64,000 nucleotides of DNA from an uncultured Candidatus Rokubacteria bacterium. GTDB lineage: Bacteria; Methylomirabilota; Methylomirabilia; Rokubacteriales; CSP1-6. The position numbers and the translations under genes were made by a program. Location of the stretch: contig CAVYTA010000006.1 of assembly GCA_963771355.1 (NCBI GenBank), forward strand, positions 1,856,001 to 1,920,000, read 5' to 3'. Below are positions 32,635 through 37,885 of the stretch, piece by piece. The stretch's first letter is position 1. Every line of letters begins with the position of its first letter. The notes beneath the pieces are model-generated. The model searched no databases. It was not told where the DNA came from and saw only the letters and a list, made by a program, of their open reading frames with translations.

Positions 32635-33153
32635 GTGATGCTCTACTCGCGTCCGCAGCTCTCACTCCTGCTGGTCCTCGGCGCCGCGCTCCTCGCCGGC
32701 CTGGCGGTGCGCGAATGGCGCGCGGGATTTCCCGAGGCGGCGGCGCGGCTCGAGACGTTCGACCGGGATGAATCCACGGCAGCGCCGGGGCCGACCCCCT
32801 TCACGGGGCCGGCCCGGCCGAACCGCCCGCCACGATCGGCGCGCGTCCCGACCGTTCCGGCGGCTGTCGAGCGCGCCGCGGTCGACGGGGCCGCGCCCGA
32901 ACGCACGCCACCCGGACGCACGCCGAAGGAGGAGCCGCCGCCGGCCGACCCGCGCCCACTCGATCTCAACGAGGCCACCGCGGAGCAGCTGGCCCGGCTG
33001 CCCGGCGTGGGCCCGGGGCTCGCACGCCGCATCGTCGAGGAACGACAGCGACGGGGCCGCTTCGAGGGACCCGAGGGGCTGCGCTCGGTGCTGGGCCTGG
33101 GGCCGCGCAAGCTGGCCGCGCTGCGCGATCTCGTCACCGCCGCCGCACCCTAG
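32635..33153 (+). CDS. comEA: ComEA-like helix-hairpin-helix DNA-binding protein
   Basis: N-terminal TM, LDLNEATAEQLARLPGVGP..A.RI...R...GRF, V.GLGP; upstream of comEC. Confidence 0.88.
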   Translation: MMLYSRPQLSLLLVLGAALLAGLAVREWRAGFPEAAARLETFDRDESTAAPGPTPFTGPARPNRPPRSARVPTVPAAVERAAVDGAAPERTPPGRTPKEEPPPADPRPLDLNEATAEQLARLPGVGPGLARRIVEERQRRGRFEGPEGLRSVLGLGPRKLAALRDLVTAAAP

Positions 33154-33162
33154 CGTGGGCCG

Positions 33163-35610
33163 ATGGCCTTCGTGCCACCGGCCGCGCTGGCGCCAAGCGC
33201 CGAGGAGCCACTGGCGCGGCCGCGGATCGCTCCGGTGGGGCAGGCCCCGCTGGTGCCCGTGGCGCTGGCCTGGGCCGCGGGGATCGCCGCCGGCCCGGCG
33301 CTGGCGGCGCCCTCAGCCTGGCTGATCGTGGGCGCGGGCGCGCTGCTCCTGGCCGCGGCCGGATCGCTCGCGCTCCGACGCGCGGGATTGGCGACCGGCC
33401 TGCTGCTGGCCGCGGCCGCGGTCCTCGGCGCGCTCCGGGCACATGAGCTTCCCCCGGGACCGGACGACATCGCCGCCCTCGGAGCGAATGGGGCCGTCGC
33501 CGTGGAGGCACGGATCGCCGAGGAGCCTCGACGGTGGGCACCCGATCGCCTCCGACTGCTGCTCGACGTGGAGGCGCTCGTGACCGAGACGGAGCGGCGG
33601 TCGGCCTCCGGGCGCGTGCTCGTCACGATCTATGGAGAAGCGCCCGCGCTGGGCGAGGGCCAGCGCATCGCGGCTGACGTGCGTCTCCATCCGCCGGTGG
33701 GATACCGCAACCCGGGCGGCTTCGACTATCCCGCCCAGCTCCGCCGCGAAGGCGTCGCGCTCGTGGGCAGCGGGCGCGCGGACCGCGTGCGGCCCCTCAC
33801 CGCCGACCTCCCGCCCTGGCCCACGCGCGTGAAGCGCTGGGCGGTGGCGCGGATTGGCGCCGCCCTGCCCGAGGGCTCGGCCGCGCTCCTCGCCGGCCTG
33901 CTCCTCGGCGAGCGCGCCGCCCTCCCGCGCGAGATGGACGACGCCTTCCGGCGCGCCGGCGTCTATCACGTGCTGGCCGTCTCCGGCTTCAACGTCGCGC
34001 TCGTCTCGGCCTCGATCTTCGCGACGCTCAGCATGGTCGGCGTCTCGCGCCGCCCGACCGCCGGGATCGCCGCGGCGGCGCTGGTGGGCTTCGCCCTCGT
34101 CGTGGGCGCGCAGGCCTCGGTGCTGCGCGCGACGATCATGGGGCTCGTCCTCCTGGGCGGAGTGCTGCTCGAGCGCGAGTCCCAGCTGCCGAACGCGCTG
34201 GGCCTGGCCGCGCTCGGCCTCCTCGCCTGGCGGCCGGGCGATCTCTGGGACCCGGGCTTCCAGCTCTCCTTCGCGGCCACGGCCGGCATCGTGTACCTCG
34301 CCGCCCCCGTGGGGGGCGCGCTCGCGCGGCTGGGCTGCCCGCCGCGGGCCGCCGCCGCCGTGGCGGTGAGCGCGGTGGCGCAGGGCGCCGTGCTGCCGGT
34401 CATGGCCGCGCACTTCAATCAGCTCTCGCTGATCGGCCTGGCCGCGAATCTTCTCGTGGTCCCGCTCGCGGGGGCGGCCACCACGGTGGGCCTCTTCGGT
34501 CTCGCCCTCGCCGTGGTCAGCGATCTCGCCGGCTCTCTCGCGCTCGATCTCGCCTGGGCGCTCGTGGTGCTGCTCCGGCTGGCGGTGTGGCTGGCGGCGG
34601 CGGTTCCCTACGCGCTCGTCCACATTCCGGCTCCCGGGCCGCCGGCCATGGCCGCGTGGGTCGTCGGCGCCGCCCTCGCGGTCAGCGTGGGCCGGCAGTG
34701 GGCGCGCCGCACCGCCGGTCTCCTGCTCGTGGCCGGTCTGGTCGCGGCGGCGTGGCCGTGGCTCGCGCCGGGTGACGGCCGCCTGCGCGTCACCTTCCTC
34801 GACGTTGGGCAGGGCGACGCGATCTTCATCGAGGTGCCGGATGGGCCACGGCTCCTCGTGGACGGCGGGCCGGGCGGCGGCGCGCGCTTCGACGTGGGCG
34901 AGCGCGTGGTGGCGCCCTATCTCTGGAACCGCGGGGTCACGGGGCTCGACGTGGTGGCGGCCACGCATGCCGACGCCGACCATTCAGGCGGGCTGGCGGC
35001 CGTGCTCCGCCGGTTCACCGTCCGCGAAGTATGGGAGAACGGGCGCTGGGGCCCGGGACACGAGGACGTGGTGGCCGCACTCGAGCGATCGGGCGCGGCG
35101 CGGCGGATCGTCTCCGGCCGGCAGCGCATCTGGCGCGGCGAGGCCCTCCTCACCATCCTCAACCCGCCCGGCCCGGACCAGCCCGAGCCGGCCACGCCGG
35201 GCGAGAACGATCGCTCACTCGTCCTGCGTCTGGACTGGCGGGGGGTATCGATCCTCCTCACCGGCGATCTCACCGCGAGCGGCGAGGAGATGCTCGTGAT
35301 TGACCGCGCCCCGCTCGCCGCCACCGTGCTCAAGGTGGCGCATCACGGCAGCCGCACCTCCACCACGGAGCCTTTCGTGAACGCGAGCCGCCCGCTCCTG
35401 GCCGTCGTGTCCGTGGGCGCGCGGAACCCCTTCCGTCACCCCGTCCCCGAGGTGCTCGCGCGCCTCGCCCTCGCCGGCGCCCGCGTGTATCGCACGGATC
35501 GCGACGGCGCGGTCATCGTCGAGACGGACGGCGCGCGCCTGTGGGTCACGCGCTGGGCCACCGGGCGCACCGAGCGTCTCGAGCTCGCCCCCGAGCCCGG
35601 CGCCCGCTGA
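33163..35610 (+). CDS. comEC: DNA internalization competence protein ComEC/Rec2
   Basis: NPGGFDY, HVLAVSGFNV, GFQLSF, FLDVGQGD, THADADHSGG, LKVAHHGS, YRTDRDG. Confidence 0.95.
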   Translation: MAFVPPAALAPSAEEPLARPRIAPVGQAPLVPVALAWAAGIAAGPALAAPSAWLIVGAGALLLAAAGSLALRRAGLATGLLLAAAAVLGALRAHELPPGPDDIAALGANGAVAVEARIAEEPRRWAPDRLRLLLDVEALVTETERRSASGRVLVTIYGEAPALGEGQRIAADVRLHPPVGYRNPGGFDYPAQLRREGVALVGSGRADRVRPLTADLPPWPTRVKRWAVARIGAALPEGSAALLAGLLLGERAALPREMDDAFRRAGVYHVLAVSGFNVALVSASIFATLSMVGVSRRPTAGIAAAALVGFALVVGAQASVLRATIMGLVLLGGVLLERESQLPNALGLAALGLLAWRPGDLWDPGFQLSFAATAGIVYLAAPVGGALARLGCPPRAAAAVAVSAVAQGAVLPVMAAHFNQLSLIGLAANLLVVPLAGAATTVGLFGLALAVVSDLAGSLALDLAWALVVLLRLAVWLAAAVPYALVHIPAPGPPAMAAWVVGAALAVSVGRQWARRTAGLLLVAGLVAAAWPWLAPGDGRLRVTFLDVGQGDAIFIEVPDGPRLLVDGGPGGGARFDVGERVVAPYLWNRGVTGLDVVAATHADADHSGGLAAVLRRFTVREVWENGRWGPGHEDVVAALERSGAARRIVSGRQRIWRGEALLTILNPPGPDQPEPATPGENDRSLVLRLDWRGVSILLTGDLTASGEEMLVIDRAPLAATVLKVAHHGSRTSTTEPFVNASRPLLAVVSVGARNPFRHPVPEVLARLALAGARVYRTDRDGAVIVETDGARLWVTRWATGRTERLELAPEPGAR

Positions 35611-35619
35611 GGAGAAACA

Positions 35620-35657
35620 CCACGGCCCCCGGGCGGTTGCCGCCCCGGGGGCCGTGG
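35620..35657. terminator. GC-rich hairpin between convergent comEC and rpoA
   Basis: ccacggcccccgggcgg / ccgccccgggggccgtgg inverted repeat. Confidence 0.7.
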
Positions 35658-35682: not shown

Positions 35683-36681
35683 CTAGCTCTCGAACGTGCG
35701 CTCGTACTGAGCGCGGAGCCGCTCCAGCTCCTCGGGATCGAGACGGATGCCCAGGGAGAGCCCCATCTCTCCCAGGATCGTCTTGATCTCGTTCAGGGAC
35801 TTCTTCCCGAAATTCTTCGTCTTCAACAGCTCCGACTCCGTCTTCTGGACGAGGTCGGCGATCGTGCGGATATTGGCGGTCTTGAGGCAGTTGGAGGCGC
35901 GCACCGACAGCTCCAGCTCGTCCACGTTGCGGAACAGGTGCTCGTTGAGCTCGAAGCGCGCCGCCGGCTCCACGCCCGCCTCCGGGCTCTCCGTCTCCTC
36001 CTGCGTGGGCACCGGGAAATCGGTGAGGAGGTTGAACTGATCCTGCAGGATGCGCGAGGCCTCCGCCACCGCGGCGTCGGGCGTCACGCTCCCATTGGTC
36101 CAGAGCTCCATCACCAGGCGCTCCGCGCCCTCGGCCGCGTTCTCCACGTGGAAGTTCACCCGCTTGACGGGCGAGAAATCCGCGTCGATCAGCATGGCGT
36201 TGATCGGGAGGGCCTCCGGCTCGCGCCGCTCCGCCGACTGATAGCCGCGGCCGCGCTCCACGCACAGCTCCATCTCGAGACCGCCATCCTTGTCCAGGGT
36301 GGCGAGCACCACCTCGGGGTTCAGGATCTCGACGTCGGCGTCGGGCTCGAAGTCACCGGCGGTGATGGTGCGCGGTCCCTGCGCCTTCAGCCGGAGAATC
36401 TTGGGCCGGTTCACGTGCAGCGCGAACACGACCTTGCGGAGATTCATGATGATGTCGAGGGTGTCCTCGGTCACGCCCTGCATGAAGGAGAACTCGTGCA
36501 GCACGCCCTCGATCTTGGCCCACGTGGGGGAGGCCCCGTGGATCGAGGACAGGAGCACCCGACGGTAGGCATTGCCCACGGTGAGCGCGAAGCCCGGCTC
36601 GAACGGCTCGATGGCGATCTTGCCGTTCTTGCGATCCTGGGCGAGCCATTCGTGACGGGCGGGCATAGCGAGTTGCGACAT
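35683..36681 (-). CDS. rpoA: DNA-directed RNA polymerase subunit alpha (divergent, stand-alone)
   Basis: [77 protein letters not shown]. Confidence 0.95.
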
Positions 36682-36725
36682 GTAGTCCCTCCTGGGGAGA
36701 TCAGGGGCCGAAACCCCGAGCCGTG

Positions 36726-36734
36726 ACTATACCA
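36726..36734 (-). promoter_or_regulatory. Extended -10 promoter for rpoA
   Basis: TGgTATAGT on the minus strand ~45 nt upstream of ATG. Confidence 0.5.
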
Positions 36735-36829: not shown

Positions 36830-37885
36830 ATGATGGAACGACCTTGGTTCGTCAAGACTTGGGCCGAGCCATCGGGCCAGCGAGGCAGCGCCCTGCGGAC
36901 CGTGCTCGGCGTGCTCGCCGGTCTGCTCGCCGTGTTCCTGGCCCTGCAGTCCTTCTGGATCTTCACCGCCGCGCCGGCCGTGCAGGCGGGGCCGCGGGTG
37001 GTGGACATCCCTCCCCACCAGGGCCTCACCGGCGTCGCCGGCCGCCTCGACGAAGCCGGGGTGATCCGGAGCCCGCTGGGGTTCATGCTGCTCGCCCTGG
37101 CCCGGGGCACCGCGCGCGGACTCAAGGCGGGCGAGTACGAGATCCCCCAGGGGGCCAACACGCTGGCCGTGCTCACCCAGCTCGAGGGCGGGCGCGTCCG
37201 CCAGCACCCCGTGCTGTTCCGGGAGGGCGGCACGCTCACCGAGCTCGCCCGCATCCTCGAGACCGAGCGGCTGGCCCGCGCGGACGACGTGCATCGCGTG
37301 GCCCGGGATCCCGTGTTTCTCAAGACCCTCGACATCCAGGCGGAAACGCTGGAGGGCTATCTCTACCCCGACACCTATCAGTTCGTGAGGGGCATGACCA
37401 CCGAGGAAATCCTGGCGCGCATGGTGGCGCGGATGCGCGACCAGATCTCCCCGGAGCTCCTCGAGCGGGCGCGGGCGCGTGACTTCAACCTGCATCAGGT
37501 GCTCACCCTCGCCTCCATCATCGAGAAAGAGGCGGTGATCCGCGTCGAGATGCCGCTCATCTCGGCCGTGTTCTGGAACCGCCTCCAGCGCGAGATGCCG
37601 CTCCAGGCGGATCCCACCGTGCAGTTCGCGGTGGGCAAGGACGGCAAGGCCCTCACTCGCGCGGATCTTCAGGTAGAATCGCCGTATAACACCTATCGGC
37701 GGCAGGGGCTGCCGCCCGGGCCCATCGGCGCCCCCAGCCGCGCCGCCATCGAGGCCGCGGTGAAGCCGGCGGCGGTGAACTACCTCTACTTCGTCTCGGT
37801 GGACGACCGCCGCCACCAGTTCTCCACCAACCTCGCCGAGCACAACGCCGCCGTCGCGCAGTACCGCATGACGAAATCCCGCTGA
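36830..37885 (+). CDS. mltG: Endolytic transglycosylase MltG
   Basis: LKAGEY, LEGYLYPDTY, LASIIEKE, LQADPTV, SPYNTY, GLPPGPI, YLYFV. Confidence 0.95.
   Translation: MMERPWFVKTWAEPSGQRGSALRTVLGVLAGLLAVFLALQSFWIFTAAPAVQAGPRVVDIPPHQGLTGVAGRLDEAGVIRSPLGFMLLALARGTARGLKAGEYEIPQGANTLAVLTQLEGGRVRQHPVLFREGGTLTELARILETERLARADDVHRVARDPVFLKTLDIQAETLEGYLYPDTYQFVRGMTTEEILARMVARMRDQISPELLERARARDFNLHQVLTLASIIEKEAVIRVEMPLISAVFWNRLQREMPLQADPTVQFAVGKDGKALTRADLQVESPYNTYRRQGLPPGPIGAPSRAAIEAAVKPAAVNYLYFVSVDDRRHQFSTNLAEHNAAVAQYRMTKSR

Follow-up and report, generated by a model that had tools for sequence, protein, structure and literature searches.

The window, i.e., the whole stretch of 64,000 nucleotides of a Rokubacteriales genome analysed here, carries a stand-alone rpoA gene whose product, hereafter alpha-S, is the predicted beta-binding alpha subunit (alphaI) of the RNA polymerase (RNAP). 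Rokubacteriales is an order of the phylum Methylomirabilota, as stated in the available part of PMC8780371. The gene, its neighbours and the features discussed below are as follows.

33163..35610, forward strand: comEC, convergent with rpoA; a frequent neighbour, given as context.
35620..35657, no strand assigned: GC-rich hairpin between the convergent ends of rpoA and comEC, from folding energy; a possible terminator with a weak U tail.
35683..36681, reverse strand: stand-alone rpoA (alpha-S, 332 aa), from an intact open reading frame and profile matches.
35749..35946, reverse strand: conserved alpha C-terminal domain (CTD; residues 246-311; PF03118), from Pfam and conserved columns.
36124..36141, reverse strand: degenerate loop of reduced length (residues 181-186) in place of E. 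coli 189-198, a likely beta'-side contact, from the alignment.
36487..36498, reverse strand: HEFS motif, beta-facing (residues 62-65; E. coli H66-S69), kept in alpha-S and lost in the operon copy.
36559..36564, reverse strand: R40-R41 (E. coli R44-R45), retained by each paralog.
36688..36693, reverse strand: Shine-Dalgarno-like AGGAGG, from a sequence match.
36726..36734, reverse strand: putative extended -10-like element TGGTATAGT, from a consensus match.
36830..37885, forward strand: mltG, divergent from rpoA; a conserved neighbour, given as context only.

Alpha-S scores 330.6 bits against the TIGR02027 rpoA family model, for a cut-off of 227.8, and contains all three Pfam alpha domains, PF01193, PF01000 and PF03118 (the N-terminal dimerisation domain, the insert and the CTD), which places it among the bacterial RpoA proteins. 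The open reading frame and the profile searches bear out the description in the earlier note of a full-length, 332-residue alpha gene flanked by comEC and mltG; neither rpsD nor rplQ adjoins the gene in the window. This neighbourhood is found in relatives as well, where stand-alone copies adjoin mltG and/or comEC in 38 of 39 cases, the remaining one lying on a short contig. A comEA-like helix-hairpin-helix gene sits immediately ahead of comEC (window 32635-35610 for the two), so that a competence gene pair is found beside rpoA.

The extended -10 element, Shine-Dalgarno sequence and downstream hairpin that had been claimed for this gene were all found where they had been placed. A -10-like hexamer lies within 120 nt upstream of all 39 stand-alone copies (mean of 2.0 and maximum of 6 after shuffling), 23 of them have the TGn form, with TG ahead of the hexamer, versus 0.09 in shuffled sequences, and a Shine-Dalgarno-like word is present at 39/39 loci. 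The conservation of the hexamer across the orthologs argues for the stand-alone rpoA having its own promoter. The putative promoter at TGGTATAGT is not listed by a consensus promoter scan of the window, which demands a -35 box. The hairpin has a folding energy of -47.3 kcal/mol (z -4.15; 1 of 200 shuffles equally good), and alignment judged by eye indicates that it is conserved mainly within its own genus. A terminator scan of the window returned 0 terminators, the hairpin having no long U run.

A tblastn search of the same genome located a second rpoA outside the window, at G000:C6:2192371-2193357 on the reverse strand. It encodes a 328-residue alpha (alpha-O) that is 42% identical to alpha-S, and it sits between rpsD and rplQ in rpsM-rpsK-rpsD-rpoA-rplQ, the arrangement in which the earlier note had advised looking for a paralog. 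The presence of this operon copy rules out that alpha-S is a translocated sole rpoA. A third tblastn match, at C6:686790 with an E value of 0.14, was set aside as noise. The genome, at 99.8% completeness, contains a single rpoB and a single rpoC, which rules out a second RNAP core in it. Across 41 close genomes rpoB was found in 29, with full-length double matches in G005 and G036 only. Operon copies adjoin rpsD and/or rplQ in 36 of 36 relatives. Among metatranscriptome contigs, near-identical pieces cover the stand-alone gene in 4/4 runs from three studies and the operon copy in 2/4 (X5 and X11); these were 4 of the 24 runs listed, chosen via the stand-alone gene itself, considered as contigs only and at likeness settings of 88 and 95. 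In run X1, the contig coverage extends to the neighbours of the stand-alone gene too. Such contigs give at most a weak indication that rpoA is transcribed, and equal levels of the two copies do not follow from them.

The distribution of rpoA was surveyed in 170 genomes of the phylum as a tally of matches, which are not equal to copy numbers. Of the 124 Rokubacteriales genomes, 106 have at least two rpoA matches, 16 have one and 2 have none, while in the 46 genomes of sister orders one match was found in 40, two in 5 and none in 1. The tallies include the unpublished genomes G016, G066, G073, G091 and G171, the first of which also provides one of the 39 stand-alone rows, and none of the conclusions rests on these five. 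Every match was fetched for the 41 close genomes, and both intact types of rpoA are present in 34 of them. In the remaining seven, G011, G016 and G017 have the stand-alone copy only, G025 and G027 the operon copy only, G022 has a frameshifted operon copy and G033 a foreign-looking second copy. The frameshifted copy and the second match of G033 (L042, G033:C358), which has a long branch and is likely misbinned, were removed before counting. Twelve genomes with fewer than two matches were examined further, namely nine of the 18 in the phylum survey (G097, G102, G113, G027, G125, G138, G139, G162 and G169) plus G011, G017 and G025 from the close set. The operon was unassembled or broken at a contig end in all five stand-alone-only genomes examined: rplQ and a true rpsD match are both missing from G102, G113, G017 and G097, and in G011 rplQ begins at a contig edge, behind the apparent tail of an operon rpoA. 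Conversely, mltG is missing from G125 and G138, the contig of G139 stops about 280 bases upstream of mltG, and that of G027 starts with the tail of a stand-alone-type rpoA. A renewed search of G162 and G169 for rpoA again gave no match.

The bin G025 (family f2, 73% complete) stands apart. Its single match is an operon copy (L010:997-1980; also L211) that keeps both of the N-terminal motifs described below, is basal in the operon clade and, with CTD residues 264 and 268 changed, is the least-derived operon copy. No stand-alone rpoA was found in this bin, in which ruvX, not rpoA, lies upstream of mltG; this state may be an early one, or may result from secondary loss or from a gap in the assembly. 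Extra stand-alone-type copies with drifting CTDs occur away from mltG in G106, G111 and G115, with a further match in G170 (loci L218, L221, L222, L224, L243 and L239; one is frameshifted and one match is a CTD only). As for the double matches in sister orders, the second one is a contig-edge fragment in G044; in G065 (L236, G065:C124), it is near-identical to the operon copy of the Rokubacteriales genome G170 and likely misbinned; and G049 and G054 have weak best matches only, suggesting split genes. In G074, of family f11 in another order of the class, the second match is a real gene (L085:1546-2601 on G074:C3). This alpha is encoded about 3 kb downstream of the canonical operon gene and follows additional rplF-like and rpsK genes. 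It keeps HEF without the conserved loop motif and groups on a long branch with sister-order alphas; it may be an independent, parallel duplication. It was held apart from the outgroup set used below.

The two Rokubacteriales paralogs have each lost one of two conserved motifs of the N-terminal domain (NTD), and the losses are reciprocal. Residues are numbered after E. coli (NC_000913.3), and the outgroup consists of 21 alphas, 14 from sister orders and 7 of Nitrospina type. The H[EG]FS motif (66-69) is found in 39/39 stand-alone and 21/21 outgroup copies and in only 1 of 36 operon copies. By contrast, the loop motif R[VL]G...D[YF] (191-198) is present in all 36 operon copies and 20 of the 21 outgroup alphas, versus none of the 39 stand-alone copies. 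Six residues separate the equivalents of 188 and 199 in alpha-S, compared with ten in 36/36 operon and 21/21 outgroup copies, and the loop is 5-9 residues long in 38 of the 39 members of the stand-alone clade. The shortened loop to which the earlier note had drawn attention is therefore real, and it is not common to the single-copy alphas of the phylum, since the loop is intact in all 14 single-type copies from sister orders. Neither of the two observations that were said to refute a specialised paralog, a sole rpoA in the lineage or the same loop loss in canonical alphas, has been made; the two genes and the absence of the loop motif throughout the stand-alone clade (0/39) also depart from a canonical single-copy homodimer. 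The equivalents of R44-R45 are retained in both types (39/39 and 36/36), which agrees with the retention of R45 noted earlier for the stand-alone alpha.

Other differences are less clear-cut. The sequence EPFEPGFA, which had been read as a departure of the NTD from consensus, is present, but the operon copy (EPFEKGYA) has its first F and final A too, and the telling change is the proline at the site of R33. This site is occupied by lysine in 36/36 operon copies and by proline in 90% of the stand-alone ones. Proline is also found there in the single copies of Streptomyces scabiei, Roseiflexus and Herpetosiphon (supplement 1 of PMC3294249, a paper cited here and below from part of its contents), so that it is not in itself a sign of specialisation. 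L83 is retained in the operon clade only, and fixed differences between the paralogs at or near the dimer helices (35, 43, 217 and 231) are at most suggestive of a preference for heterodimers. Full-length members of both clades score about 275-335 bits against TIGR02027, versus about 375-405 for sister-order single copies, as expected if both had diverged. The footprints of the partner subunits on alpha are placed at 30-55 and 65-75 for beta and at 175-185 and 195-210 for beta' (PMC3294249). A literature search for compensatory mutations placing the 189-198 loop on beta' found nothing usable, including in the available part of PMC11137121.

The CTDs of the two types differ as well. Mean retention over 40 conserved CTD columns is 0.89 in stand-alone copies versus 0.53 in the 23 full-length operon copies, in line with the earlier description of a well-conserved stand-alone CTD. 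Alpha-S keeps the equivalents of E261, V264, R265, N268, C269, G296, K298 and S299, of which those at 268, 296, 298 and 299 are here assumed to count among the functional residues of the CTD. R265, G296 and K298 are kept by all 23 operon copies of full length, 22 of which have lost E261, V264 and C269. Residue 265 and its neighbours form the DNA determinant of the alpha CTD and residue 261 the sigma4 determinant, according to the available part of PMC1874639. The CTD is absent altogether from 13/36 operon copies (L064-L076), those of G026 (family f3) and of twelve members of family f4, which end at 237-255 aa; the rpoA stop of the twelve f4 copies overlaps the rplQ start, which makes the deletion a clean one. 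It is thus the "orphan" stand-alone copy that has the better-conserved CTD and, likely, the main contact with beta.

Both rpoA copies are under purifying selection. In 11 overlapping, non-independent pairs, dN/dS of the NTD ranges from 0.03 to 0.13 for stand-alone and from 0.05 to 0.41 for operon copies, and that of the operon CTD, where present, from 0 to 0.13 in 9 full-length pairs. These values and the intact frames rule out a pseudogene or decaying spare.

Altogether, these findings make it probable that alpha-S is one of two reciprocally degenerated, order-wide rpoA paralogs and acts as the likely beta-binding alphaI of a single RNAP with a fixed alphaI/alphaII heterodimer. Between the asymmetric heterodimer and the alternative RNAP that the earlier note had proposed, the former is supported and favoured, because the operon copy is also non-canonical, having lost the reciprocal motif, and because there is one rpoB and one rpoC. 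Such a heterodimer is known from Francisella, in which pull-down, two-hybrid and transcription assays show that alpha1 and alpha2 pair and that alpha1 recruits beta (PMC3294249); structures of this RNAP are available (PDB 6wmp and related entries). In the Rokubacteriales enzyme, alpha-S would cover beta as alphaI, as a complex model predicts, and alpha-O would bind beta' via its retained loop, as alphaII. Each of the two would pair preferentially with the other rather than with a second copy of itself, and contacts with promoter DNA, sigma and activators would be made mainly through the alpha-S CTD. In the two families with a CTD-less operon copy, the enzyme would have one CTD only.

That the two alphas instead form separate homodimer polymerases, or a regulated mix, sharing beta and beta' and differing in promoter preference through their unlike CTDs, appears improbable. 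This reading finds support in the conserved promoter-like element of the stand-alone copy, in the R44-R45 pair kept by both, in CTDs that differ while that of the operon copy is still conserved where present, and in the extra stand-alone-type copies of G106, G111 and G115; the low activity of the Francisella alpha1 homodimer (PMC3294249) also makes a minor homodimer form plausible. However, each copy lacks a motif that is present in 20-21 of the 21 outgroup alphas, so that each homodimer would miss one interface, and in 13 genomes the homodimer of the operon copy would lack a CTD and thereby any contact with upstream DNA.

The orientation of the proposed alphaI/alphaII heterodimer was addressed by predicting, as a three-chain job, the complex of both NTDs with a 536-residue fragment of beta. 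The complex scores 0.79, versus 0.57 for the best control, with a partner pLDDT of 81, and at least 93% of contacts recur across its three runs. The mark that it passes was reached by 116/157 solved and 2/215 mismatched pairs, counts that are only roughly valid for a three-chain job. Modelling of the kind suggested in the earlier note, here with beta, seats the stand-alone alpha on beta. In the model, 36 alpha-S residues contact beta, including 40-41 and 61-73, residue 41 being the lowest-error contact, and the best run places alpha-S in this seat. Four alpha-O residues also reach beta, the helix residues 31, 32, 35 and 39 (E. coli 33, 34, 37 and 41); the first is the R33 site, kept basic in the operon clade only. 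The outgroup residue is retained more often by stand-alone than by operon copies at the modelled beta contacts (0.73 vs 0.55), and about equally elsewhere (0.50 vs 0.48), a modest gap that 8 of 214 circular shifts also reach. Since like complexes are solved, the pass may reflect structures already known to the predictor, and what is informative is only which copy takes the seat. Two residues, N161 and D168 (window 36178-36201; sites 169 and 176 in E. coli), never vary within the stand-alone clade (39/39), are unlike their counterparts in operon and outgroup copies, and contact beta in the model; they may be new alphaI-specific contacts.

A heterodimer of no fixed orientation, in which either copy could sit on beta and the motif losses would be relaxed drift offset elsewhere, is quite unlikely. 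The model leaves room for the operon copy on beta, because the control in which alpha-S was replaced still scored 0.57 for the operon copy with beta. R45 is present in both copies, and the authors who described the Chloroflexus pair saw no drastic substitutions in it and suggested that its members may be equivalent (PMC3294249). Against this, the two losses complement each other strictly and are those seen in the Francisella pair, and the best model run has alpha-S on beta, with at least 93% of contacts shared by the three runs.

The origin of the pair is indicated by a careful tree of 44 rows (12/39 stand-alone, 12/36 operon, 14/14 sister-order and 4/7 Nitrospina copies, the extra copy of G074, and E. 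coli). Stand-alone and operon copies each form a clade (100/100 and 100/99), their branching orders are largely parallel, and the two clades join at 97/91. A topology that unites operon with sister-order copies and leaves out the stand-alone ones is rejected (p-AU 0.013). The sister orders fall with Nitrospina in the free tree, not with the two paralogs, yet monophyly of the phylum is not rejected (p-AU 0.25), and the deep branching order is unsure because a single long E. coli branch provides the root. The phylogeny and selection analyses that the earlier note had called for thus agree on two paralogs forming one clade, both maintained by purifying selection. The simplest reading, and a likely one, is that rpoA was duplicated on the stem of the order and that subfunctionalisation came after. 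Horizontal transfer of the stand-alone copy, or a role for it as a free CTD-bearing regulator outside RNAP while the operon copy does the core job, is a highly improbable reading: the gene does lie away from the operon and the free tree does not place the sister orders with the two paralogs, but the two clades are sisters (97/91, alternative rejected), the operon copy is the more degenerate one, with its CTD missing in 13/36, and the stand-alone copy retains the beta-facing surface.

No paper on a two-alpha RNAP in Rokubacteria, or on rpoA in this lineage, was found among the matches listed from the open literature, a coverage that leaves aside subscription journals and bioRxiv supplements, and the only bacterial two-alpha cases recognised among the matches listed for rpoA duplication are those of Francisella. 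The available part of a 2026 review (PMC13374769) describes the bacterial alpha as a homodimer and mentions neither Francisella nor Rokubacteria. Francisella is the sole experimentally shown exception to the alpha homodimer in the literature searched. It seems somewhat probable that an entire order has exchanged the alpha homodimer for a heterodimer that is obligate and oriented, and that two families within it went further, to a natural one-CTD RNAP. Given that Francisella and Chloroflexus show the same reciprocal loss of the two motifs and that a sister-order genome has lost one of them as well, it would follow that rpoA duplication repeatedly takes one route to the asymmetry of Rpb3/Rpb11, with its intermediates still alive. 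If so, Rokubacteriales would be a second, order-wide case with graded stages (a little-derived operon copy, a degenerate CTD, a deleted CTD), which would reveal how alphaI and alphaII emerge from a symmetric scaffold and would provide natural reagents for the roles of each alpha seat and each CTD. The opposition of HEFS and the loop offers a testable signature for other cases, including a re-reading of the Chloroflexus pair. In practice, rpoA is not usable as a single-copy marker in Rokubacteriales.

The closest known system is that of Francisella, in which, as in Rokubacteriales, a lineage-specific duplication has given two diverged copies of rpoA, only one of which lies in the ribosomal operon. 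The same two reciprocal losses, HE[YF]S versus the 189-198 loop, are found in both: Francisella alpha1 keeps HEYS with the loop deleted, and alpha2 shows the reverse (supplement 1 of PMC3294249). Rokubacteriales shares with it two intact diverged paralogs, one beta and one beta', and the reciprocal loss of contact motifs. The gene positions are swapped, however, the beta-type copy being stand-alone in Rokubacteriales and operon-encoded in Francisella, and the operon-copy CTD is degenerate or deleted in Rokubacteriales, unlike in Francisella. R45 is also kept by both Rokubacteriales copies (36/36 operon), while it is Gln in Francisella alpha2; this lowers the case for a Francisella-type pair, not that for a pair working like Francisella's. 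The Francisella heterodimer is experimental, whereas the Rokubacteriales pair is known from sequence and a model. An oriented alphaI/alphaII heterodimer that arose independently is the most likely reading, and separate origins are likely because the phylum differs. In the trees, which covered E. coli, Nitrospina and the sister orders, the two paralogs make up a clade by themselves.

The Chloroflexus pair, as judged by eye from supplement 1 of PMC3294249, shows both the pattern and the gene positions of Rokubacteriales. Its operon copies lack HEF and keep the loop, its stand-alone copies keep HEFS with an altered loop, and both keep RR. It belongs to another phylum, and its loop is substituted rather than clearly shortened. 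The canonical alpha homodimer (E. coli RpoA, TIGR02027) has the same domains as alpha-S, which scores above its cut-off and conserves R44/R45 and the DNA-binding residues of the CTD, but one gene fills both seats of the canonical enzyme, whereas each Rokubacteriales paralog lacks one of the two conserved surfaces. The archaeal Rpo3/Rpo11 and eukaryotic Rpb3/Rpb11 are likewise asymmetric alpha-like pairs, of which the beta'-side member tends to shrink (PMC13374769, PMC3294249, both in part). These pairs need extra assembly subunits (PMC3294249), whereas the Rokubacteriales copies are still two-subdomain bacterial alphas, and the likeness to Rpo3/Rpo11 and Rpb3/Rpb11 is one of analogy, not of membership.
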